NCBI GenBank assembly: GCA_044464625.1
Contig: JBIQLC010000012.1
Span: 252 to 64,251, forward strand
Length of the DNA stretch: 64,000 bases
Direction of reading: 5' to 3'
DNA from: Afipia sp.
GTDB taxonomy: Bacteria > Pseudomonadota > Alphaproteobacteria > Rhizobiales > Xanthobacteraceae
In this document: piece after piece, positions 7,651 to 28,963 of the stretch
Numbering within the stretch: the first letter of the stretch is position 1
Layout of the letters: each line of letters starts with the position of its first letter
Notes under the pieces: generated by a model
Told to the model about the DNA's origin: nothing
Databases searched by the model: none
Seen by the model: only the letters and a program-made list of their open reading frames with translations
Made by a program: the position numbers and the translations under genes

Positions 7651-7726
7651 TGGCAGGAGTGGCAGGGCTCGAACCTGCGACCCCCGGTTTTGGAGACCGG
7701 TGCTCTACCAATTGAGCTACACTCCT
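7651..7726 (-). tRNA. tRNA-Trp(CCA)
   Basis: AGGAGTGTAGCTCAATTGGTAGAGCACCGGTCTCCAAAACCGGGGGTCGCAGGTTCGAGCCCTGCCACTCCTGCCA, 76 nt, encoded CCA end. Confidence 0.98.
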
Positions 7727-7879
7727 ATCGGTCGCCTCTATAGCGAACAGTTTTCGCCGCGTCACGCCCCCTCATCGCTTTTTTGGCGCGGGGATCCGCG
7801 CCTTGACTTGAGATCGCCGCACTTTCCTAATGGCTTGTCCATGATTGGAGCAGTTTGGCAGGATGGCTGGGAACACGGT

Positions 7880-9574
7880 GTGAAGAATGTCTCTCTTATA
7901 CGCCGGATGTCGCTCACCCAACGCCTGCTTGCTCTCACACTCGCGGCGACCCTGCCCGGCCTGATCGCCCTGATCTACAGCGCCATCGACCTGCGCAACA
8001 CCCGCTACGCCGAAGTGCGCACCGAAGCGCTGCGCAACACCCAGTTCATCGTCTCCGAACTCGACCACATCTTCGACGGTGTCGAAGCCACGCTGCATGC
8101 CGTGTCGCAAGCCGCCGATGTTCGCCAGGGTGATCCGCAAGCCTGCTCGGCCTATATCAGCCGGATTCGCGAGCGGCTGCCGGCATTGACCTCGCTGATC
8201 ATCGTCAATGTCGATGGCACGATCCGCTGCTACAGCGAGGGAACGTCAGACGCCAATTTCGCCGACTGGCCGTACTTCCAGAATGCCCTGAAGAACAAGA
8301 CCTTCTCGATCGGAACCTACACAGCCAGTCGCGTGTCGCGGCTCAATGCCGTCCCCGTCGCCTTGCCGGCGCTCTCGGGCAACTCCGTCGAACTGGTGGT
8401 GATGGCCGCCATCAATCTCGACTGGCTCAATGCCGAAATCAGTCATCGCGGCACCACCCGCGGCGGCACCATCGTCATTGCCGACCGCGACGGCGTGATC
8501 GTTTCGCGCTCGCCCGCTCCTGAAAAATACGTCGGGACCAAGATCACCGATCGCAACGCCCCGCTGGTCAACGCCGCCAAGGCTGGCGTCGTAGACATAA
8601 CCGGCTCGGACGGAACCGAACGGATCGCCGGTTATATTCCCGCTCCGCTGACGCCGTTCGGTTTTTATGTGAGCGCCGGCACATCACGCAGCGAAGCGTT
8701 CAAATCAATTGACCGTGCGCTCTACGCCAGTGTCCTGCTGTTCCTCCTCGGCAGCGGCATCGCGCTGGGTCTGGCCTGGCTGGTTGGCGAAGGCTTCATC
8801 CGCCGGCCGCTGATGCGCGTGGTGGCGACCGCGGAAGCCTGGCGTCAGGGTCACGACACCGCGCGCACCGGCATCGTCAACCGCGACGACGAGATCGGAA
8901 TTCTTGGCCAGACCTTCGACAGACTGATGGACGAGAACGCGGAACGTGAGGAACAGCGCGACATCGCCGAGGCCCGGCGCGAAATCCTCGTCCACGAGCT
9001 GGCGCATCGGGTCAAGAACACGCTGGCGACGGTGCAATCCATCGCCTCGCTCTCTTTCCGTTATAGCCAGGGACCGGAAGCGCTGCGCGGATTTCAGGAC
9101 CGTCTGCAGGCGCTGGTGCGCAGCCATGATCTCCTGACCCACCGGCACTGGGAGCACGCCGATTTTCAGGAGATGGCCGAGGCCGCGCTGGCGCCGGCAC
9201 GCGAGGATCGCGCCCATCGGTTCACCCTGTCCGGACCGCGCGTCAACCTGCCGCCCGGCACGGTGGTGCCAGTGTCGATGATCCTCCACGAACTTTGCAC
9301 CAACTCGCTGAAATACGGCGCTCTATCGAACGACAACGGCCGCATTACGCTGCGCTGGAATGCTGCACCTGCTGAAGGCGGCACCCGGCTCGACATTACC
9401 TGGAGCGAGGAAGGCGGACCGCCGGTGAAGCCTCCCGAACAGGAGGGCTTCGGCACCAAGCTCATCGCCAGCCTCACCTCGCAGATGAATGGCGGCGCCG
9501 AGACCCGCTACCTTCCGGGGGGCATCGTCTGCGAGATGCACCTCATCGCACCGGCCAACGAACCCCGCGATTAG
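7880..9574 (+). CDS. Membrane HWE-family sensor histidine kinase (Cache-like periplasmic domain, HAMP)
   Basis: Two TM segments, HAMP-like NRDDEIGILG, H-box ELAHRVKNTLA, HWE motif, LHELCTNSLKYGAL, WSEEGGPPV, GFG; start GTG 7880 or ATG 7907 (the track's 7619 start overlaps tRNA-Trp). Confidence 0.88.
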   Translation: MKNVSLIRRMSLTQRLLALTLAATLPGLIALIYSAIDLRNTRYAEVRTEALRNTQFIVSELDHIFDGVEATLHAVSQAADVRQGDPQACSAYISRIRERLPALTSLIIVNVDGTIRCYSEGTSDANFADWPYFQNALKNKTFSIGTYTASRVSRLNAVPVALPALSGNSVELVVMAAINLDWLNAEISHRGTTRGGTIVIADRDGVIVSRSPAPEKYVGTKITDRNAPLVNAAKAGVVDITGSDGTERIAGYIPAPLTPFGFYVSAGTSRSEAFKSIDRALYASVLLFLLGSGIALGLAWLVGEGFIRRPLMRVVATAEAWRQGHDTARTGIVNRDDEIGILGQTFDRLMDENAEREEQRDIAEARREILVHELAHRVKNTLATVQSIASLSFRYSQGPEALRGFQDRLQALVRSHDLLTHRHWEHADFQEMAEAALAPAREDRAHRFTLSGPRVNLPPGTVVPVSMILHELCTNSLKYGALSNDNGRITLRWNAAPAEGGTRLDITWSEEGGPPVKPPEQEGFGTKLIASLTSQMNGGAETRYLPGGIVCEMHLIAPANEPRD

Positions 9575-9637
9575 CCTTCTGAGCCCTTCCGGCGGCATCC
9601 TTCGATCATCTTCACAATGTGACCAAAAAGCGGCGTC

Positions 9638-9652
9638 TTAACCGGCCGTTGA
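9638..9652 (+). promoter_or_regulatory. Near-consensus CtrA box (TTAA-N7-TTGA) upstream of MCP
   Basis: TTAA ccggccg TTGA, 64 nt before ATG 9716. Confidence 0.45.
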
Positions 9653-9715
9653 CCGGGTTTGGTTAACAGTCCGACCTCCTATTTTGTCTGATTTGCCGGA
9701 TTTCCAGGAGGGAAG

Positions 9716-11677
9716 ATGCAAAGGCTCTGGTCCGTTTCCGCCCGTATCATGATCGCAATTTCGCTGGTGGCGGCCGCCTCCTGCATTGGCCTCGCCGCCT
9801 TCGGACTGTGGCGGCAGCAGACCGCGATCGACCTCGCGCTTCATCGCGAACTGCAATCCGACTACGTCAACATGCTGAGCGCCATGGAAGCCGACACCCG
9901 CACCGTGCAGGTGGTCGCCAACGCGCTCGCCACCATGCCTGAGCTCAAGGCCGTCGTTCGGGCCAAGGATCGCGAAGCAACGCTCAAGCTGCTCGACAGC
10001 ACGCTGGCATCGATCAAGCCGCTCGGCGTCGAACTGATCACCATCCAGTTGCCGCCCGGCGTGACGCTGGCGCGCGTCCACAATCCGAAGGTGTTCGGCG
10101 ATAACGTCACCGCCCGCCGCAAGATGGTGGCGCAGGCCATTGCCGACAACAAGGCGCTCGGCGGCATCGAAGCCGGCCATGACATTCTCAACATTTTCGG
10201 CACCACGCCGATTGTCGACAACGGCACCGTGCTCGGCACCGTCGATGTCGGCGCTCCGTTCGGCAAGGCTTTCGTCAAGTCGATGAAGGACCGCTTTGGC
10301 GTCGACGTTGCGATCCACCAGATCAGCAAGGATGCCGTGAAGACGCTCGCCTCCACCATCGGCGCGGCCCAGCCTTCGCTCAACACTGTCAAGCGGGCGC
10401 TTGGCGGCGAAACGATTTTCGTCGAAGGCGAGATCGCAGGCCATCCGACCTCGACCACCTACGGCCAGATCAAGAGCTTCTCGGGTGAGCCCATCGCGGT
10501 CATCGAAATCGTTCGCGACACCTCGGCCTATAGCGAACTCGCGCGCACCTCGGCGATGTGGCTCGCGGCCGGCGCCGTGGCGGCCGTCCTGATCGCGATC
10601 CTGATCGCCGCGTGGGTTGGCCGCAGCCTCGCCCGCCCGATCCTGACGCTCGAGAGCACGATGCGCACCATCGCGTCGGGCCAGCATGACATCGTCGTTC
10701 CCGGCGGCAATCGTCGCGACGAGATCGGCTCGATGGCGCGCGCAGTCGATGTGTTCAAGGAAGGGCTGATCGAAACCGACCGACTGCGGGCGGCGCAAGA
10801 ACAGCAGCGTGTCACGGCCGAAGCCGAGCGACGCGAAACAGTCCTTGCCCTCGCGGCGCGTTTCGAAGCCGGCGTCGGCGGCATCGTCAATGCCGTGGGC
10901 TCAGCAGCCACCGAGCTGCGCAGCACGGCCGAGTCGATGGCCGGCACGGCGGAAGAAGCCACGCACCAGACCACCGCGGTCGCAGCCGCATCGGAAGAAG
11001 CGTCGCAGAACGCCCAGGCTGTCGCCGCCGCCATCGAGGAGCTGAATGCGTCGATCAACGAGATCGCCCAGCAGGTCAACGAGTCGGCGCAGGTTGCGGG
11101 TCAGGCCGTCAATCAGGCCAACCAGACCAATGCCGAAGTCCAGAGTCTTGAAGACGCCGCCCAGAAGATCGGCGACGTGGTCAAGCTGATCAGCGAAATC
11201 GCCGAGCAGACCAACCTGCTCGCGCTCAACGCGACCATCGAGGCCGCACGCGCCGGCGAAGCCGGACGCGGCTTCGCCGTGGTGGCGTCGGAAGTGAAGG
11301 CGTTGGCGACCCAGACGTCGAAGGCGACCGAGGAAATCTCGTCGCAGGTCGGCGCCATCCAGGCTGCGACCCGCACTTCGGTTGAAGCCATCACCGGCAT
11401 CACCCGCACCATCGGCAAGGTCAACGAGATCGCCAGCGCGATCGCCTCCGCCGTGGAAGAGCAAGGCGCTGCAACCCGCGAGATCGCCCACAACGTCTCG
11501 GAAGCCGCGCGGGGCACCGGCGAGGTCTCGGCCAACATCGCAGGCGTCAAGGACGCCGCGCACGAGACCGGCGTCGCCGCCGATCAGGTCGTGGCCTCTG
11601 CCGCCGAGTTGTCGCAGAACGGCGAGACGTTGAAGCAGCAGGTCGACGCCTTCCTGCGCGAGGTTCGCGCCGCCTGA
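9716..11677 (+). CDS. Methyl-accepting chemotaxis protein with Cache-type sensor
   Basis: Two TMs, HAMP ([12 protein letters not shown]), signalling domain [34 protein letters not shown]. Confidence 0.95.
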
Positions 11678-11699
11678 TCTGCGCATCAGACCAAACGAG

Positions 11700-11727
11700 A
11701 AAGCCGCCCCTCAAGGGCGGCTTTTTT
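11700..11727 (+). terminator. Rho-independent terminator after MCP
   Basis: AAAGCCGCCC-ctcaa-GGGCGGCTTT followed by TTT. Confidence 0.85.
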
Positions 11728-11744
11728 GTTTCAAACTATGATGC

Positions 11745-11833
11745 CCTCATCCTGAGGAGCGGCCTTATGGCCGCGTCTCGAAGGATGAGGCCTCATGGTT
11801 CGAGACGCCGCTGCGCGGCTCCTCACCATGAGG
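11745..11833. repeat. Intergenic palindromic repeat, family B (CCTCATCCTGAGG...CCTCACCATGAGG), copy 1
   Basis: Shares CCTCATCCTGAGGAGCGG, GCGTCTCGAAGGATGAGG, CCTCATGGTTCGAGACGC and GCTCCTCACCATGAGG with 28143-28245. Confidence 0.85.
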
Positions 11834-11858
11834 AGTCAAACTACGTCGGCAGCCAGTA

Positions 11859-12284
11859 TCAACCCGGCCCCTTCATCACCTTGAACACGCCGTTGGCCAT
11901 GGCGATGCAGCGGTCATCGACGCTCAACTCGGTATTCATGAAAATCAGCGTCTTGGTCGCGCGGACGATACGCGGACGCGAAATCAGCAGTTCGCCGATC
12001 TTCGCCGCGTCGATGAAATGCGTATCCATCTGGATCGTCACCACCGCGCTGACGCCGCTGCCGATCCGCGCCGCCATTCCGAGCGAACGATCCGCCAGCG
12101 TCATCAACAGGCCGCCCTGCACGAAACCACGCCGGTTCTTGTGCTTGCGCTGGGCCACGATCGCGTAATCGAGGGCGTCGCCGTTCTGCCTCTGCCACAG
12201 CGGTCCCACCAGATCGATGAAACCGTCGTCATCGACGATCGTCCAGCCGTCGTCGATCATCTTCTTGGAGCTTGTATCGCTCAT
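11859..12284 (-). CDS. PaaI family (hotdog-fold) thioesterase
   Basis: HKNRRGFVQGGLLMTLADRSLG...TIQMDTHFIDAAKIGE. Confidence 0.85.
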   Translation of the reverse strand: MSDTSSKKMIDDGWTIVDDDGFIDLVGPLWQRQNGDALDYAIVAQRKHKNRRGFVQGGLLMTLADRSLGMAARIGSGVSAVVTIQMDTHFIDAAKIGELLISRPRIVRATKTLIFMNTELSVDDRCIAMANGVFKVMKGPG

Positions 12285-12405
12285 TATCCTGTTTACCCCG
12301 GTCGTATCGCCCGGCCCACGTGGCCGTGCTCAACCGAGGCTTTTATCAATCCTGCCCGCGAAGTCACGCCGGCCGCTCACCGAGCGACCGGCGTGCCATG
12401 CGATG

Positions 12406-13029
12406 CTAGGTCTGCACACCCGGCAGCAGCCAGTCGCGATAGGTGATGCCGTAGCGGTCAGCAACCTTCTCGGACGTGCTCTCCTTGGATGCACTGTCGA
12501 TCGCGGCCTGAACGGCAGTCCCCAGAACACCCTGCCCAACAACCAGGGTTGCGACGAGCTTCGGACACGACAAGATCGTTGCGCCTGTTTTCGCATCCAC
12601 CAGCGTGGCATCCGCGACCATGCCATGCCCGCCGCCGACCACAATGCGCTGCATGGCCGACGCAATCGTAAAGCTATGGACCACGACCTGCAGCCGGACC
12701 GGGCGCGAACCGTTGAGATGTTTTCCGATTGCCTTTTCGACGCCGGCCTTGATCTGCGGCGTCAACACGCCCTGCATATAGGCCTTGCCTGCGGGCGATC
12801 GCGCGGCTTCGCCGGCCTTATCGTCCATGATCGCATGCGCACCAAGGTAGGGCCGGATACCGTCCTCCCACTGGATGGTAGAATCTGGCGCGAAACTGAC
12901 TGCGACCTCCGTCAGCTTCATCCCCGTAATGTCATTCTGCGACAGCGTGTTTTTTGCCGCCGCCATACATCCCGCGAGCGCAAGCGCGCCCGCAAGCACG
13001 GCAAGCCGTGCCAACCGCCCCAACTTCAT
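12406..13029 (-). CDS. Putative lipoprotein, unknown function
   Basis: MKLGRLARLAVLAGALALAG-C lipobox; start set at ATG 13029. Confidence 0.7.
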   Translation of the reverse strand: MKLGRLARLAVLAGALALAGCMAAAKNTLSQNDITGMKLTEVAVSFAPDSTIQWEDGIRPYLGAHAIMDDKAGEAARSPAGKAYMQGVLTPQIKAGVEKAIGKHLNGSRPVRLQVVVHSFTIASAMQRIVVGGGHGMVADATLVDAKTGATILSCPKLVATLVVGQGVLGTAVQAAIDSASKESTSEKVADRYGITYRDWLLPGVQT

Positions 13030-13216
13030 TTTTATAGCCCCCAGCATTTCCTGTGCGTCGCTCAGCCCCGAGCACGCCACTATGACTTAGGGAGCAGAGA
13101 AGAAACTTGTCTACTTTTTCTCGTTTTGCAGTGCGGTCATGCTCTGTTCAAGCTGAGCAATCTGGGCCAAGCTTTCCCGCGAAGCCCAACCTCGAACAAG
13201 AAAATCCGGAGGCCGC

Positions 13217-14434
13217 ATGAACGTCCACGCCACCCCGAAGCAGGCCAAGGCCACCCCCGCCCTTCCGTCCGCCAAACCGGAATCGATCGGGCTGTCACCG
13301 GCGCGTCTGCAGCGCATGCGCGACTGCTTCCAGCGCGAGATCGACAAAGGCACGACGCCCGGCGTCGTTACCCTCGTCTCCCGTCGCGGCCAGATCGGAT
13401 ACTTCGAAGCGCAGGGCCGCCAGAGCCCGGCCGAAGATGCCCCGATGACGCGCGACAGCATCTTCCGCATCTTCTCGATGACCAAGCCGCTGGTGTCGAT
13501 CGGTATCATGACGCTGGCCGAGGACGGCTATCTGCTACTCAACGATCCGCTCGCCAAGTTCATTCCCGAATTCGCCAACCAGAAAGTCGGCGTCGAACAC
13601 AACGGTCAGCTCGAATACGCCCTGCCGATCCGTCCCATCACGATTCAGGATCTGCTGCGCCACACCTCTGGCATCGCCTATGAAATCACCGGCAACGGCA
13701 TGGTGCAGCGGATGTATGCCAAGTCGAACGTCCGCAGCCGCGACATCACCAATGAGGAACATGCGAAGCTGATCGCCAGCATGCCGCTGATGTGCCAGCC
13801 CGGCACCGAATGGAATTACAGCCGGGCGACCGACATTCTCGGCCGCGTCATCGAGGTGGTGTCGGGCAAGACGCTGGACGAATTCCTGCAGGAGCGCATC
13901 CTCGCGCCGCTGCAGATGAACGAGACCGGCTTCCATACCGCCGTGGAGAACAAGGGCCGCCTCGCCGAGCCCTTCCCCGTCGATCCGTGGACCGGCGACA
14001 AGGTGCAGCTCTACGACCAAACCAAGGTGCCAAAGATGGAATCCGGCGGCGGCGGCCTCGTTTCAACCGCGATGGACTATGCGCGCTTCTGCCAGATGCT
14101 GCTCAATGGCGGCGAGCTGGACGGCAACCGCATCATCGGCGACCGCACGCTGAAGTTCATGGCCTCGCCGCACGTCGCGCCGGGCGTGAAACTGGAAACC
14201 CATCTCGTGCCGCCGGGACACAATTTCGGTCTCGGCTTCGCTGTCCGCACCGAGGAAGGCATGGCGCCCTACGCCGGCTCGATCGGCCAGTTCTTCTGGA
14301 GCGGTGTCGCCGGCACGTTCTTCTGGATCGACCCGAAGGAAGAGCTGTTCGCCGTGTTCCTGTCGCAAGGCCCGGGTCAACGCGAGTATTTCCGCACGCT
14401 GATCCGCAGCCTCGTCTACGCGGCGGTGGAGTAG
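13217..14434 (+). CDS. Serine hydrolase, beta-lactamase class C/esterase family
   Basis: FRIFSMTK (SxxK), LLRHTSG, PGTEWNYS, GGGGLVST, FFWIDP. Confidence 0.9.
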   Translation: MNVHATPKQAKATPALPSAKPESIGLSPARLQRMRDCFQREIDKGTTPGVVTLVSRRGQIGYFEAQGRQSPAEDAPMTRDSIFRIFSMTKPLVSIGIMTLAEDGYLLLNDPLAKFIPEFANQKVGVEHNGQLEYALPIRPITIQDLLRHTSGIAYEITGNGMVQRMYAKSNVRSRDITNEEHAKLIASMPLMCQPGTEWNYSRATDILGRVIEVVSGKTLDEFLQERILAPLQMNETGFHTAVENKGRLAEPFPVDPWTGDKVQLYDQTKVPKMESGGGGLVSTAMDYARFCQMLLNGGELDGNRIIGDRTLKFMASPHVAPGVKLETHLVPPGHNFGLGFAVRTEEGMAPYAGSIGQFFWSGVAGTFFWIDPKEELFAVFLSQGPGQREYFRTLIRSLVYAAVE

Positions 14435-22993: not shown

Positions 22994-23263
22994 TTACCAC
23001 CGGCGCCAATGACGATGATGCCAGCCATGATGATGGCGGTGGCCATAGAATCGCGGAGCACCATAGTAACCCCACGACCGATAATACCGCCGGTTCGGCA
23101 CACAACGGCCCCAGGGGTTAACGTGCCAGCCGGGGCCGCAGCGCCAGCCGACTTCGGTTACGGGAGCGGTGGTATTGCCGAGCGGCGCAGCGGGCATCGC
23201 CTGCGCGGCTGATGCCATACCGAGACCGACAACGACAGCGAGTGAAGCCAAGAGTTTTTTCAT
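22994..23263 (-). CDS. Small secreted protein, GCG_CRPN-prefix-like, with His/Arg/Trp/Tyr-rich tail (89 aa)
   Basis: Signal peptide MKKLLASLAVVVGLGMASAAQA, WRCGPGWHVNPWGRCVPN Cys pair, tail GHRHHHGWHHRHWRRW; RBS GAGGAG before ATG 23263. Confidence 0.8.
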   Translation of the reverse strand: MKKLLASLAVVVGLGMASAAQAMPAAPLGNTTAPVTEVGWRCGPGWHVNPWGRCVPNRRYYRSWGYYGAPRFYGHRHHHGWHHRHWRRW

Positions 23264-23664
23264 GGCGTTTCTCCTCTTTCCTGAATACCCAATCTCAACG
23301 CATCGCCCCTGAACATGCGATGAAGGACCTCGCCGGAATTCCGCCTTAGTCATACGCGGTCACTTCGTCGAACGAGGCACCATCGACGATTCAAGTTTTT
23401 CAAGAAGCGGACGCGCTGAACGTTCCGCGTCGAACGCGGATTAAACTTTGTGGGCGCCGGAACTGAATCGAGTTCCCAAATCCACAACCCGTCACGCTTT
23501 CAGCGAAAGCTCGCGAAGCACGATGCTGACTTATCGTCTCTTGGGAGTCAGCGATGCGGGATCGATGGAGTGAGATTCAGAAAGCCGAAAATGCGATGAG
23601 ACCGCCGACTCGCGCGACGCAAGTCCCGCAATCACGTCGTCCATTCATCGAATCGGAAAAGCGT

Positions 23665-23708
23665 TGGAGCGGGTGAAGGGAATCGAACCCTCGTATTCAG
23701 CTTGGAAG
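23665..23708 (-). repeat. attR: displaced 3' fragment of tRNA-Gly
   Basis: Minus strand CTTCCAAGCTGAATACGAGGGTTCGATTCCCTTCACCCGCTCCA; similarity to the intact tRNA stops at the 5' edge of the anticodon loop. Confidence 0.92.
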
Positions 23709-23840
23709 TCGATTCCGTAACATTTACTTGCATCTCACCAAACCTCATCCAACAGCATAAGCTGTCATATTTTCAACAGTATAGCGGTCTACAGCACGTC
23801 ATCGGAAATCACCCCAAAACACCCCAGCCACCGGATTTTT

Positions 23841-23858
23841 GTGCCCCGTGAGTGCCCC
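23841..23858 (+). promoter_or_regulatory. Putative tyrosine-integrase arm-type site pair (GTGCCCC-N4-GTGCCCC)
   Basis: GTGCCCCgtgaGTGCCCC about 130 bp inside the attR core; same motif and orientation at 26371-26388. Confidence 0.65.
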
Positions 23859-23950
23859 GGAAATCTGGGTACAAAAGGCATTCCATGGTTGTTCACAGCG
23901 CTTGCTGCCAGCATCCTGTTTTGCAGAGCCTGCTGCATGGATTTGAACAG

Positions 23951-24895
23951 GTGACTGCAGAATTTGAATACGACGTTGCTTTCAGTTTTTGCGCCATCGA
24001 CGAAGGCGTAGCTACGCAACTAAACGATCTTCTGGCCCCGCGCTTGAAAACGTTCATCTACAGTGAGCGGCAACGAGAAATCGCGGGCACGGACGGCCAG
24101 GATAGTTTCAGCAAGGTATATGGAAAGACCGCACGCCTAGTCGTGGTGTTATTCCGCCCTGAATGGGGCGAAACGCCGTGGACTCGCGTCGAGAAGGACG
24201 CGATCAAAAACAGGTCGCTGGATGACGGCTGGGACTTCACAACCTTTGTGCCAACTGTCGAAAAACCTCAGATGCCGCCTTGGCTACCAAAGACGCGGCT
24301 TTACGTTGGCCTGCAACGCTGGGGCGTAGAAGGTGCCGCCGCGACGATTGAAGCGCGAGCCACGGAGCGAGGCAGCACCCCCCGCGAAGAAACCGCCACC
24401 GAGCGTGCTGAGCGGCTGCGTAGATCCTTGGATCTCAAGAAAAAACAAGAACAGTTCCAATCGACGGAGGCTGGCGTCCAGAGCGCGAAACAAGCCTACG
24501 AGGCTTTTTCTCTGGCAGTTGAGAAACACGCTGAGTCAATCACCGCCGCAGGCGTCAAAATAGACACAAAGAGATCGCAGGAATTCCGGATCGTTACCGG
24601 CTTGTATCCTTGCAATATGATCTGCAGCTTTAGCCCGTTCTACTCGAACTCCCTTGATGGCGCTCATCTGCTTGTCGATGCGTTTAAGGGATTCCCACGT
24701 ATACCAGGATTCTATGGATCGATAGAGAAGGCCATGAAGCTAAAATCGTTGCGCTATTCCTACCAACTCGTGAGACCGGATTATCATACGTGGGTTGGCG
24801 TGGACGAAAAAGGAAGAGAGTTCACACCGCAGCAACTTGCAGATCACGTCCTTCGGGCCTACATGGACCTCGCCGAGAAGACGAAGGCCGACTGA
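23951..24895 (+). CDS. TIR-domain protein (TIR, charged coiled-coil, uncharacterised C-terminal domain), 314 aa
   Basis: YDVAFSF (betaA), TFIY (betaB), LVVVLF (betaC), WGETPWTRVE with Glu codon at 24191-24193 in the catalytic position; start GTG 23951 preferred over 23852/23885. Confidence 0.82.
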   Translation: MTAEFEYDVAFSFCAIDEGVATQLNDLLAPRLKTFIYSERQREIAGTDGQDSFSKVYGKTARLVVVLFRPEWGETPWTRVEKDAIKNRSLDDGWDFTTFVPTVEKPQMPPWLPKTRLYVGLQRWGVEGAAATIEARATERGSTPREETATERAERLRRSLDLKKKQEQFQSTEAGVQSAKQAYEAFSLAVEKHAESITAAGVKIDTKRSQEFRIVTGLYPCNMICSFSPFYSNSLDGAHLLVDAFKGFPRIPGFYGSIEKAMKLKSLRYSYQLVRPDYHTWVGVDEKGREFTPQQLADHVLRAYMDLAEKTKAD

Positions 24896-24905
24896 GCAGC
24901 GCAGG

Positions 24906-25067
24906 TTAATTGGCCCTTGTGAATTCCCGCAGCGCCTTCTGCGCCCGCCTCCGATCCTCGTCCGTCTTCGCCTCGTCGACATGCGACTGGAGAATACGGC
25001 GCATCTTCTGCTCGGCAGACTCTTTTGCCTCGCGGGCAAGCTCAGATTTGACCAATAGAATCCTCAT
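24906..25067 (-). CDS. Small charged helical hypothetical protein (53 aa)
   Basis: MRILLVKSELAREAKESAEQKMRRILQSHVDEAKTDEDRRRAQKALREFTRAN; starts 24 nt after the methyltransferase stop on the same strand; below the ORF-track cutoff. Confidence 0.45.
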   Translation of the reverse strand: MRILLVKSELAREAKESAEQKMRRILQSHVDEAKTDEDRRRAQKALREFTRAN

Positions 25068-25091
25068 AGCGGTATGGTGCAATCACGACCG

Positions 25092-26078
25092 TCAGGCGGC
25101 AAATAGATCGACCTGACGTGACGGAGCCTCGGTCGCTTGCCGTGCTGCGATGACGGCCTCCAACCTGAGCCGGGTCAATTCTACGTATTCAGGATTAAGC
25201 TCGCAGCCGATGTAGCGACGACCATGCTCGATCGAAACCTGACCGGTAGTTCCGCTGCCGTTGAATGGATCGAGCACGATGTCGCCCGGGCGGCTGCCAG
25301 CCAGAATGCATGGCTCGATCAGCGCAGGCGGGAACGTGGCGAAATGTGCGCCTTTGTAGGGGCGCGTGGCGACGGTCCAGACGCTGCGGCGGTTGCGCTT
25401 GCCATCCTCCAATCTCTCTTTGTCGCTGCTTCGACCAAGCTGGTGCTCTGCAGTTTTTCCGCGGTTGAAGCTGGAGCCAGCTGCGCCTTTGACTGCATCC
25501 TCTCGCATCGCCTCGCTGTCGCAAAAATAGCGTTCCGACTTGCTCAGCAAAAAGATGTACTCATGCGCCTTGGTGCAGCGGTCGCGCACGCTCTCAGGCA
25601 TCGGGTTCGGCTTGTGCCAGATGATGTCCTGGCGCAGGTACCAGCCATCGGCGCGCAAGGCGAATGCCAGCATCCACGGGATGCCGATGAGGTCTTTAGG
25701 TTTGAGTCCCAGCGCTGCTGCATTGCTGGTGCGGTCGCTCATCTGCTCCAGCGTGTTGCGCGTGCTGCCAACCTTTGCGGTATCGGAAACCTTGCGGTCG
25801 GTGCCACCAGTGCGCGCGTAACTATCCCCAATGTTCAGCCAAAGCGTCCCATCATCGGCCAGCACCCGGCGCACCTCACGAAAGACCTCGACCATCTTCG
25901 CAATGTAGGCGCCCGGCGTTTCCTCCAATCCAATCTGTCCGTCGTGCCCGTAGTCGCGGAGGCCGTAATATGGTGGCGAAGTCACGCACATCTGCACGCT
26001 GTTCGCCGGCAACTCTTTTAGTCGTGTAATGCAGTCGCCAACGTAGACCGTCGCGCCTTCAAGTTCGAGTTTGTCCAT
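25092..26078 (-). CDS. Site-specific DNA methyltransferase, beta-class N4-C/N6-A, phage type
   Basis: Motif IV TSPPY near the N-terminus, GLRDYG...QIGLE, IIWHKPNPMPESVRDRCT, HFATFP, motif I LDPFNGSGTTG near the C-terminus. Confidence 0.92.
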   Translation of the reverse strand: MDKLELEGATVYVGDCITRLKELPANSVQMCVTSPPYYGLRDYGHDGQIGLEETPGAYIAKMVEVFREVRRVLADDGTLWLNIGDSYARTGGTDRKVSDTAKVGSTRNTLEQMSDRTSNAAALGLKPKDLIGIPWMLAFALRADGWYLRQDIIWHKPNPMPESVRDRCTKAHEYIFLLSKSERYFCDSEAMREDAVKGAAGSSFNRGKTAEHQLGRSSDKERLEDGKRNRRSVWTVATRPYKGAHFATFPPALIEPCILAGSRPGDIVLDPFNGSGTTGQVSIEHGRRYIGCELNPEYVELTRLRLEAVIAARQATEAPSRQVDLFAA

Positions 26079-26370
26079 TAAGTGTGGTCGCCACGTTGGT
26101 TCGTGGCTTGAAGTTTGTTCTCACGAATTCCAGTCGAAGGACGGCTTCGCGTGATAACGCATGACAACAATCATTTTGCGGCAATGAATTCGATGCTCGA
26201 CCAGCTCAAGCCATCAGCCACAGAATCAGAGTTGACTAGGCCTGCGCGCCACCAACGCAGCGCACGACCGAATTATGCATCAAAGTTTTTGCAGCAAATG
26301 AAAACCAGACAAACTCGTGTGGTTATCGTTCGAGCAAAGTCATCAGTCTGAAAAGCTGTTGACGAGAGAT

Positions 26371-26388
26371 GTGCCCCAGGAGTGCCCC
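26371..26388 (+). promoter_or_regulatory. Putative tyrosine-integrase arm-type site pair, tRNA-proximal
   Basis: GTGCCCCaggaGTGCCCC about 130 bp from the CTTGGAAG core in tRNA-Gly. Confidence 0.65.
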
Positions 26389-26480
26389 GAACGCGCTTTT
26401 TGGTCGCACGACGGACTCTTGATGCGTCCGCGCGGGTCGCGTAACGCCTTGTCCTGCAAGTGATTTTATCGATGAAGGGA

Positions 26481-26554
26481 TGGAGCGGGTACCGGGAATC
26501 GAACCCGGGTATTCAGCTTGGAAGGCTGCTGCTCTACCATTGAGCTACACCCGC
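26481..26554 (-). tRNA. tRNA-Gly(TCC), also attL
   Basis: GCGGGTGTAGCTCAATGGTAGAGCAGCAGCCTTCCAAGCTGAATACCCGGGTTCGATTCCCGGTACCCGCTCCA, 74 nt. Confidence 0.97.
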
Positions 26555-28327: not shown

Positions 28328-28963
28328 TTAGTTCATGCGATGATGCGGGCGCACCGAGCGTTGCTTCGCATAGCCCGAATAACCGTTGCGCTGGACCACG
28401 CGCGGACCCGGCCGCGATGTGTAGTAATACTTGGTGCCCGGACGCTGGTAACGGTGATGATGCGGGCGACGCACCGGAGCCGGACGCACCGCGCGAGGTG
28501 CGTGATAAACGGCGCGATGATAGCGATAGGCCCTCTGCAAAGCGCGACGGCTGTAGATGCCCGGACGCTGGATGCGCACACCGTCATAGTAGTGGCTGGT
28601 GGCGTTGCCATACGGCCCGCCGTTGTAGCCGTAGTAATAAGGCTGGCTGTAGGCGTACCACCCCGACACCGCGCGTTCCTGATAGGTCGGCACCGGCGCG
28701 ACATTGCCCGGGCCGCTATAAGTCGGACCCTGGTTCACATAGTAGTACTGCGGGCCGGATGAGGACCACGGGCCGGTCGGATCCGGCAGGTGTTCGCGGT
28801 GGCCGTAACGATAGTAGTTCGCGCCATATCCGTAGTCGTAGCCATAACCGCTGGTGACGCCGAAGTTGAACCCTTGCGAGCAAGGATTATAGCAAGCCAT
28901 CGCCGGAGCTGCGCTCACCGTAAGGGCGAGCGCTGCCGCCACCGCTGCAATCGTCTGACGCAT
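28328..28963 (-). CDS. Secreted Tyr/Gly-rich hypothetical protein with basic tail
   Basis: Signal peptide ending APAMA, CYNPC, YGY repeats, Arg/His-rich C-terminus; RBS AGGAGAG. Confidence 0.7.
   Translation of the reverse strand: MRQTIAAVAAALALTVSAAPAMACYNPCSQGFNFGVTSGYGYDYGYGANYYRYGHREHLPDPTGPWSSSGPQYYYVNQGPTYSGPGNVAPVPTYQERAVSGWYAYSQPYYYGYNGGPYGNATSHYYDGVRIQRPGIYSRRALQRAYRYHRAVYHAPRAVRPAPVRRPHHHRYQRPGTKYYYTSRPGPRVVQRNGYSGYAKQRSVRPHHRMN

Follow-up and report, generated by a model that had tools for sequence, protein, structure and literature searches.

Can a single bacterial gene, with no recognizable partner beside it, both detect an infection and act on it? A locus in the 64,000-nucleotide (nt) stretch of Afipia sp. 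DNA analysed here (contig JBIQLC010000012.1; the window, below) raises this question. At 23951–24895 lies a gene for a protein with an N-terminal TIR domain and a C-terminal half of novel appearance. A first-pass annotation had read it as a one-gene sensor–effector of antiphage defence, in which the C-terminal domain senses a phage component and a coiled coil brings the TIR domains together. We consider the gene a candidate one-protein abortive-infection sensor–effector that would cleave nicotinamide adenine dinucleotide (NAD+) once its C-terminal module is triggered, and we put the probability of this reading at roughly 0.55. The gene and its parts are as follows.

23951–24895, forward strand: gene for the TIR and C-terminal-module protein (314 amino acids; coordinates include the stop codon)
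23951–24370, forward strand: TIR domain, residues 1–140 (from Foldseek matches in the PDB, TIR_2 matches within the family and invariance counts)
24371–24547, forward strand: linker (G141, E147, R155, R158) and helical hairpin, residues 141–199 (from AlphaFold2 models and conservation)
24548–24892, forward strand: six-stranded antiparallel sheet and C-terminal helix, residues 200–314 (from the AlphaFold2 model of the module)

A divergent TIR domain with an intact catalytic motif

The gene lies within an open frame that runs from 23852 to 24895 on the forward strand. Homologues conserve the strand FEYDVAFSF and, in their alignment, start 4–5 residues ahead of it, so the GTG at 23951 is the start that fits the family. 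Two further in-frame starts lie upstream, an ATG at 23885 (giving 336 amino acids, the form held as P0001 in the public protein collection) and a GTG at 23852; the ATG at 23885 may be the start instead. At E ≤ 1e-3 the protein has 163 homologues; almost all of those that are full-length measure 307–320 amino acids. They come from Bradyrhizobium, Rhodopseudomonas, Rhizobium, Devosia, Kumtagia, Phyllobacterium, Hyphomicrobium and many metagenomes. In NCBI they are annotated as hypothetical proteins; for two, the UniRef name is TIR domain-containing.

Two lines of evidence indicate that residues 1–140 adopt a TIR fold, one from predicted structure and the other from the family as a whole. First, a full-length AlphaFold2 model built from 31 sequences has a mean predicted local distance difference test (pLDDT) score of 88.4, and the best PDB matches of its residues ~1–140 in Foldseek are all TIR domains, aligned over ~137–149 columns. 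They include the TIR domain of MyD88 (E 5e-5) and AbTir bound to an NAD+ mimic (template modelling (TM) score of 0.75 by target; root mean square deviation (rmsd) of 2.8 Å), and further MAL, SPARTA TIR-APAZ, the TIR domains of plant nucleotide-binding leucine-rich repeat receptors and the SpbK filament 9phb. Second, Pfam TIR_2 (PF13676) is detected in 17 of 31 homologues at E ≤ 0.01 (best 3e-6) and is the only family matched; in the window protein itself there is no TIR_2 match at E ≤ 0.1. By sequence, the protein is best described as a divergent TIR_2-like lineage, and the TIR pattern read into its N terminus at first pass holds.

The catalytic motif of enzymatic TIR domains appears to be in place. 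W77 (codon 24179–24181) and E81 (codon 24191–24193, read as GAG and correctly picked out by the first-pass annotation) frame the sequence W77-T-R-V-E81, which opens a predicted helix at residues 76–92 after the strand at 61–68. All 106 homologues compared have E81. Without exception they also share an aromatic residue at position 77 (W in 91, F in 15) and the BB-loop glycines G46 and G49. In AbTir, E208 is essential and W204 governs cyclization, and the corresponding WxxxE pair of SARM1 is W638/E642 (10.1101/2022.05.07.491051). Judged from the alignment, the WxxxE motif is thus intact and sited as in enzymatic TIR domains, and NADase activity is predicted.

The same data bear on a different view of the domain, namely that it is inactive or acts on another substrate (RNA or DNA, as a 2′,3′-cyclic nucleotide monophosphate synthetase, or as a pure scaffold) in a regulatory housekeeping role. 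The similarity to Pfam TIR_2 is sub-threshold, the top fold matches include the non-enzymatic adaptors MyD88 and MAL, and several loci sit among housekeeping genes, all of which would suit such a protein. The invariance of the WxxxE glutamate and the BB-loop glycines across phyla argues instead for catalysis, and the rare, patchy, islet-borne distribution of the gene argues against a housekeeping role, so we hold this view to be very unlikely.

A compact C-terminal module

The C-terminal 174 residues, modelled alone from 39 sequences, gave a pLDDT of 95.9 and a predicted TM score of 0.87. According to this model, residues 141–314 are one compact, previously undescribed module, in which a helical hairpin (149–170 and 173–199) is followed by the sheet and closed by a final helix at 293–310. 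The charged helical segment noted at first pass corresponds to the first of these helices, and helices are present at 149–170 and 173–199; a reading as a free coiled coil is not supported, since the hairpin is predicted to pack into the confidently modelled module and helices 149–199 look like part of it. Conservation follows these elements: G141, E147, R155 and R158 are conserved just past the TIR domain, F169 and G175 at the hairpin turn, and a near-invariant YxN(S/T)L motif (N233) in the sheet part. Residues 200–314 are proposed to be the sensor or switch part.

The first-pass statement that this domain could not be assigned proved sound. The module has no significant match in Pfam or PADLOC, PDB sequence-profile searches with full-length and module profiles returned no match, and a Foldseek search of viral predicted structures returned none either. 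Foldseek found no significant fold match in the PDB, the best being frataxin/CyaY at E 0.25. We do not take the frataxin/CyaY matches as evidence of homology: at E 0.25–2 and a TM score of ~0.5, they reflect a common, simple alpha/beta sandwich topology.

Both halves of the protein are under purifying selection. Against the orthologues of B. murdochi and Bradyrhizobium sp. Ai1a-2, the ratio of non-synonymous to synonymous substitution rates (dN/dS) is about 0.08 for the whole gene, 0.05 for residues 1–140 and 0.09–0.10 for residues 201–314. The C-terminal half has changed faster, with dN 2–4 times greater than in the TIR half and a mean column identity of 0.49 against 0.74 (106 sequences).

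The module recurs behind other effectors

In a search of 1.84 billion representative proteins, the module profile matched 1,167 clusters (50% identity) at E ≤ 1e-3, of which 657 reached E ≤ 1e-10. A census of domain architecture took in the best 150 of the 1,167 clusters, 75 of which have a full N-terminal region. Among these 75 full-length proteins, 66 carry the same TIR domain as the window protein and 9 carry something else. Proteins that join the module to another N-terminal domain include the following.

P0259: CHAT protease (PF12770, 1e-9; PADLOC SAVED_CHAT, 1e-12)
P0231: SEFIR domain (PF08357, 1e-18; PADLOC bSEFIR, 1.5e-62)
P0178: DUF4062-like domain (PADLOC PDC-S60, 2e-29)
P0170 and P0235: canonical TIR_2 domain (2e-29 and 3.5e-22)
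P0147 and P0245: domain starting F(Y/W)SWQSD, no family assigned
P0160 and P0224: helical domains, no family assigned

The N termini of P0170 and P0235, of ThsB/PDC-S66/Aga type, also match the PADLOC profiles PDC-S66, ThsB, RT-TIR and Argonaute-associated TIR. In profile–profile comparisons of the window family with P0235 and P0170 (hhalign), the module alone aligns, at E 1e-17 and 2e-25, so these are real domain swaps and not one ancestral protein diverging along its length. By analogy, effector swapping behind a constant module is a pattern typical of the sensor or switch in modular immune proteins. The module's recurrence behind at least five other N-terminal domains lends support to the sensor–effector half of the first-pass proposal; its coiled-coil half gives way to the predicted hairpin.

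A broader proposal is that the module is a new, widespread infection-sensing domain of a modular one-protein immune family, found in more than 12 phyla, fitted with interchangeable killers and possibly able to spread as a 1.6-kb islet without an integrase. We advance it tentatively, at a little under even odds. If the sensor–effector reading is right, a new sensor domain joins the short list of ways in which bacterial TIR enzymes detect infection. As proteases and further NADases are also joined to the module, its trigger, once found, would then explain a whole set of uncharacterized proteins. Neither Pfam nor the 2023 PADLOC models contain the family, and annotation pipelines for defence genes from that time would therefore overlook it. 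Should the reading be wrong, what is left is still a conserved, cross-phylum TIR protein family.

Two apparent departures from these architectures were set aside. Bacteroidota proteins that seemed to consist of the TIR domain only, matching at query residues 3–181, prove to have kept the module in diverged form (E 1e-10 to 1e-22), which rules them out as C-terminal swaps. Proteins of 170–200 amino acids that seemed to be stand-alone modules begin within the last part of the TIR domain and are probably gene calls cut short. An alignment of five variant modules, run against a large protein collection in a word-index search, returned 3 matches only.

The unassigned N termini were also followed up. 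P0147, P0245 and P0268 share an N-terminal domain of ~175 amino acids that starts with F(Y/W)SWQSD and later carries the motif N-x-N-V-x-I-E-x-G-(Y/R)-A; the domain has no Pfam, PADLOC or PDB match. We take the motif to resemble the catalytic region of nucleoside 2-deoxyribosyltransferase-like enzymes. PDB sequence searches with two unassigned variant N termini returned no match.

A proposed route from trigger to cell death

We propose that, in an uninfected cell, the module keeps the TIR domains apart or autoinhibited, with the linker helix that carries G141, E147, R155 and R158 beside the TIR domain as the likely coupling element. Binding of a trigger by the sheet and helix of the module would then cluster the TIR domains or re-orient them head-to-tail into a composite active site. 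As trigger we consider an abundant, multimeric phage protein most likely; a small molecule that arises in the course of infection is a less probable candidate. The assembled enzyme would hydrolyse NAD+ to nicotinamide and ADP-ribose and, given the aromatic residue at position 77, might also yield cyclic ADP-ribose isomers as by-products. Loss of NAD+ would stop both metabolism and phage replication in the infected cell. An antiphage role has precedent among TIR proteins at large: 37.5% of those tested from E. coli were antiphage (PMC11350192).

The TIR domain might instead be a signal maker like ThsB, whose product, of cyclic ADP-ribose type or another nucleotide, would switch on an effector from a different part of the genome. 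An aromatic residue at the Trp position of WxxxE is typical of cyclase TIR domains (10.1101/2022.05.07.491051), ThsB proteins, too, are small and combine a TIR domain with variable extra domains, and PADLOC ThsB is matched by one variant N terminus. Against this, the window holds no ThsA, SLOG, Macro or SIR2 effector and no PADLOC family, no neighbour is conserved in 24 loci, and the gene moves alone on 1.6-kb islets, where it would be useless without a resident effector. We favour direct killing over signal production because the module's other partners, the CHAT protease and the DUF4062-like NADase, are terminal effectors. Signal making is, in our judgement, unlikely.

Relation to known defence systems

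Single proteins that pair a TIR or TIR-like NADase with a sensor domain have already been described, among them SpbK (PMC12847820), Swarozyc and Vulcan. The single-gene theme thus has several characterized examples; the C-terminal module is undescribed and reusable. A full-text literature search found no paper describing the family that combines this TIR domain with the module.

A close parallel is SpbK of the Bacillus subtilis element ICEBs1, a TIR NADase that works as a single protein and responds to YonE, the portal protein of SPbeta; clustering of TIR domains on the phage protein leads to abortive infection through loss of NAD+ (PMC12847820). Like SpbK, the window protein is encoded by one gene on a mobile element and is proposed to join its TIR domain to a small non-enzymatic sensor; clustering on a phage protein is the mechanism that we propose for it too. 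The order of parts is reversed, however: in SpbK a four-helix-bundle sensor comes first, then a flexible linker and last the TIR domain. The sensor folds are unrelated, with no detectable sequence similarity.

In Swarozyc, Evangelion and Vulcan, DUF4062 is a TIR-like NADase termed NIR and is joined to an auxiliary domain; the auxiliary domain is needed for defence, and the systems are single-gene and horizontally spread (2026 preprints). Activation of Swarozyc by the Bas14 portal has been proposed (2026 preprint). The layout is shared: an N-terminal TIR-like NADase with a catalytic glutamate, helical stalks and a C-terminal auxiliary domain. P0178, which has the window protein's module, even has a DUF4062-like N terminus. 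The window protein itself differs in having a TIR_2-like N terminus, with no match to DUF4062 (PF13271) in it or in 31 homologues, and in the auxiliary fold, which is a winged helix-turn-helix in Swarozyc and HEAT repeats in Vulcan but a helical hairpin with a six-stranded alpha/beta sandwich here.

The bSEFIR proteins (Millman et al. 2022) are similarly single proteins with an N-terminal TIR-superfamily domain and an uncharacterized C-terminal region, spread over many phyla, and the SEFIR protein P0231 carries the window protein's module. The window protein has no SEFIR or bSEFIR match in Pfam or PADLOC. The match of P0231 to the bSEFIR profile spans only positions 37–226 of 412. A link between the module and the canonical bSEFIR C terminus is not supported: a search with P0231 found 1,366 SEFIR proteins, and none of the 119 other relatives listed carries the module.

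The multi-gene TIR systems share the TIR fold and the catalytic glutamate with the window protein: Thoeris ThsB, SPARTA TIR-APAZ and the TIR effectors of CBASS and Pycsar. Each depends on partners. ThsB needs ThsA (SIR2, transmembrane or Macro, with SLOG), whereas the window holds no ThsA and the protein has no PADLOC ThsB match. SPARTA needs APAZ and a short prokaryotic Argonaute (pAgo), and there is no pAgo in the window or among the neighbours; full-length alignments to TIR-APAZ have an rmsd of 21–27 Å, and the TIR part alone superposes. CBASS and Pycsar need a cyclase together with a SAVED, STING or cyclic-nucleotide-binding domain, and the protein has none of these domains and no cyclase nearby. 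As their partners are absent, membership of Thoeris, SPARTA, CBASS and Pycsar is excluded. A PADLOC scan found no Thoeris, CBASS, Pycsar or pAgo component in the window, and 58 other window open reading frames (ORFs) gave zero matches at 1e-8, apart from an adjacent methyltransferase, the only neighbour to match PADLOC. The first-pass annotation had listed ThsA, cyclase, SAVED, STING and pAgo as missing, and all of them are. Our data likewise agree with its view that the TIR gene stands alone and keeps its catalytic glutamate, with no partner in the window or at 24 loci and E81 present in every homologue aligned.

Distribution and genomic context

Relatives of the TIR protein occur in 108 of 185,579 genomes, one per species, in a rare and patchy distribution over more than 12 phyla. 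They are found in Alpha- and Gammaproteobacteria, Bacteroidota, Acidobacteriota, Verrucomicrobiota, Planctomycetota and Gemmatimonadota, and further in Nitrospirota, Chloroflexota, Actinomycetota, Ignavibacteria and Bacillota, many of them in metagenomes from groundwater, sludge and peat.

Several relatives lie in mobile DNA. In Rhizobium the order is tRNA-Leu, integrase, the TIR gene as first cargo and then variable cargo. The Devosia homologue is on a repABC plasmid, near an integrase, PIN/Phd and RES/Xre toxin–antitoxin pairs and restriction–modification genes, and the Phyllobacterium homologue adjoins P2-like prophage tail genes and an ATP-dependent DNA ligase. A tRNA gene lies within 2.5 kb at 10 of the 55 loci with enough flanking sequence, and seven tRNA species are involved. 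Bacterial genomes carry roughly one tRNA gene per 90 kb, and by that density the proximity would be several-fold over chance.

The 144 ORFs that flank the gene at 24 loci reveal no conserved partner, since each Pfam family is present at most twice. A minority of neighbours at these loci are of PADLOC defence types: mad2 four times, mad8 three times, mad3 and PDC-S19 twice each, type I and II methyltransferases and one type IIG enzyme. The first-pass annotation had proposed a check for enrichment of homologues in defence islands; the association seen is modest, with some restriction–modification, MADS and PDC neighbours on the one hand and many loci amid housekeeping genes on the other.

The Devosia locus (L010) has further genes of this kind. 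Directly downstream of the homologue, a compact cluster at 9089–14037 encodes Methyltransf_35 and HATPase_c_3 and then a Dcm-type methylase, Vsr and HNH_2; with the PIN/Phd and RES/Xre pairs upstream, the region is a plasmid-borne defence and addiction island.

This distribution also bears on roles other than antiviral defence. The protein could be a selfish addiction or competition toxin of its islet, or a host-interaction effector of plant-associated bacteria that acts on eukaryotic NAD+ or TIR signalling. Rhizobia and further Alphaproteobacteria of plants or soil carry its nearest homologues, some bacteria use TIR proteins as virulence effectors (Brucella TcpB/BtpA and Pseudomonas HopAM1), and retention by addiction is conceivable for an islet without an integrase. 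On the other side, we saw no signal peptide or secretion-associated neighbour and, at the 24 loci, no antitoxin-like conserved neighbour; the family spans more than 12 phyla and many metagenomes without a plant host; and an exchange of partners such as that with CHAT, SEFIR and DUF4062-like domains is what intracellular immune proteins show. We regard a non-antiviral role as distinctly unlikely.

Several observations weigh against an abortive-infection sensor–effector. Some concern the enzyme. The window protein has no significant match in Pfam, PADLOC, NCBIfam or PHROGs, and P0049, the only homologue with a TIR_2 bit score on record, scores 25.3 bits, below the Pfam gathering score of 28 bits. 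E81 is equated with the catalytic glutamate by motif and secondary-structure position. When the N-terminal alignment was compared by hhalign with two canonical TIR domains and with SARM1, each as a single sequence, no alignment was significant; the sole local alignment, itself non-significant, pairs W77 and E81 with the WxxxE of P0235. Some TIR domains, moreover, are scaffolds or signal makers and do not deplete NAD+. Others concern the role in defence. The phage trigger and the oligomerization step are inferred throughout. Housekeeping genes surround the loci in Hyphomicrobium, in an Ignavibacteriales SEFIR variant and in one metagenome contig, the association with defence islands appears modest, and tblastn searches of 50,697 phage and 72,556 plasmid records returned no homologue.

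An integrase-less islet at tRNA-Gly

The gene is carried on an islet whose limits are given by a direct repeat.

23652–23708 (core 23665–23708), no strand assigned: distal island boundary, displaced 3′ half of tRNA-Gly, direct repeat with 26468–26524
26481–26554, reverse strand: tRNA-Gly(tcc), integration target, its 3′ half the proximal boundary (ARAGORN; Rfam tRNA, 70 bits)
25092–26078, reverse strand: N4/N6 DNA methyltransferase, variable second cargo (Pfam N6_N4_Mtase, 3.8e-55; PADLOC MTase_II, 2e-112)
24906–25082, reverse strand: ORF of 58 amino acids, strongly helical and charged, status uncertain (ORF list)
26115–26351, forward strand: ORF of 78 amino acids, doubtful, adjoining the methyltransferase

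The repeat pairs 23652–23708 with 26468–26524 over 57 nt (the tRNA 3′ half and 13 nt more) at 82% identity, with a spacing of 2816 nt. Between the copies, a 2.8-kb islet holds the TIR gene, the 58-amino-acid ORF, the methyltransferase and the doubtful 78-amino-acid ORF; no integrase ORF or integrase Pfam match lies in 23709–26480. GC content is 0.51–0.58 over 23250–25000, against 0.60–0.68 in the flanks. The islet thus combines the marks of a tRNA-integrated island, namely insertion at a tRNA 3′ end, a far direct repeat and atypical composition, and two first-pass claims, a lower-GC cargo gene and an attachment site (attR) at a tRNA gene, are both upheld, the repeat overlapping tRNA-Gly(tcc).

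The core 23665–23708 matches the genuine 3′ half of tRNA-Gly in B. murdochi and R. palustris with 100% identity and, on this comparison, is as a displaced native 3′ half looks after site-specific integration. It is this displaced copy that agrees with the tRNA of related species; the present tRNA-Gly therefore looks chimeric, with a 3′ half from the element. The working 3′ half (26481–26524) differs from 23665–23708 on both sides of the T-stem, GTGAAGGGAATCGAACCCTCG versus GTACCGGGAATCGAACCCGGG.

Related species have the same arrangement in smaller form. In B. murdochi the TIR gene stands alone between perfect 107-nt repeats 1642 nt apart, and in R. palustris it stands alone between 42-nt repeats 1690 nt apart. 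Integrase-less islets at tRNA-Gly(tcc), 1.6–2.8 kb in size, span 23652–26524 in the window, 7660–9408 in locus L008 and 7730–9461 in locus L001. They may be mobilized in trans by an integrase elsewhere, like cis-mobilizable elements, or may be remnants of larger islands. If the sensor–effector reading is right, such islets show in nature how one immune gene can travel by itself although it brings no integrase along.

Comparison of the islets also decides the standing of the methyltransferase. Positions 23665–25016 align colinearly with the islet of B. murdochi (78% identity), and the difference is the methyltransferase block, 25017–26473. The enzyme is phage-like (phrog_67, 3.5e-86); CcrM-type NCBIfam models match it far under their cut-offs, and it has no recognizable restriction partner. 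It is absent from R. palustris and survives as an 84-amino-acid remnant in B. murdochi. As the block is what sets the window apart from the B. murdochi islet and is decayed or absent in relatives, we regard the methyltransferase as separate, dispensable cargo and not part of the TIR system. One system formed by both genes, with the TIR protein as a modification-dependent or modification-protected toxin in place of a restriction enzyme, would agree with their convergent position on one 2.8-kb islet and with the few other loci that have a methyltransferase among the six nearest ORFs. It is, however, extremely improbable: R. palustris has the TIR gene and no methyltransferase, the TIR gene of B. 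murdochi is intact and under purifying selection beside its methyltransferase remnant, and methyltransferases make up just 2–3 of 144 neighbours.

A 20-nt direct repeat, TGTGCCCC(GT/AG)GAGTGCCCCG, identical at 18 of 20 positions, occurs inside the islet at 23840–23859 and 26370–26389, 132 nt from the left boundary repeat and 78 nt from the right; its left copy overlaps the GTG at 23852. It could be due to chance, represent arm-type recombinase sites or be the trace of a second integration event. Public sequencing runs were also searched for an empty integration site. A joint that skips 2816 nt appeared at 20–40 times organism depth with 34 nt on one side; it most likely derives from other tRNA-Gly genes and was not used. 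None of the public RNA runs holds the TIR locus.

Small open reading frames and flanking genes

Neither small ORF of the islet, at 24906–25082 or 26115–26351, has a family match. The former lies downstream of the methyltransferase and is convergent with the TIR gene, and its 3′ part is inside the stretch that is colinear with B. murdochi.

Outside the islet, two putative secreted small proteins flank the tRNA region, both encoded on the reverse strand. The one at 22994–23353, without a Pfam match, is rich in Gly, His, Arg and Trp, and the one at 28328–28963 is rich in Tyr, Pro and Gly.

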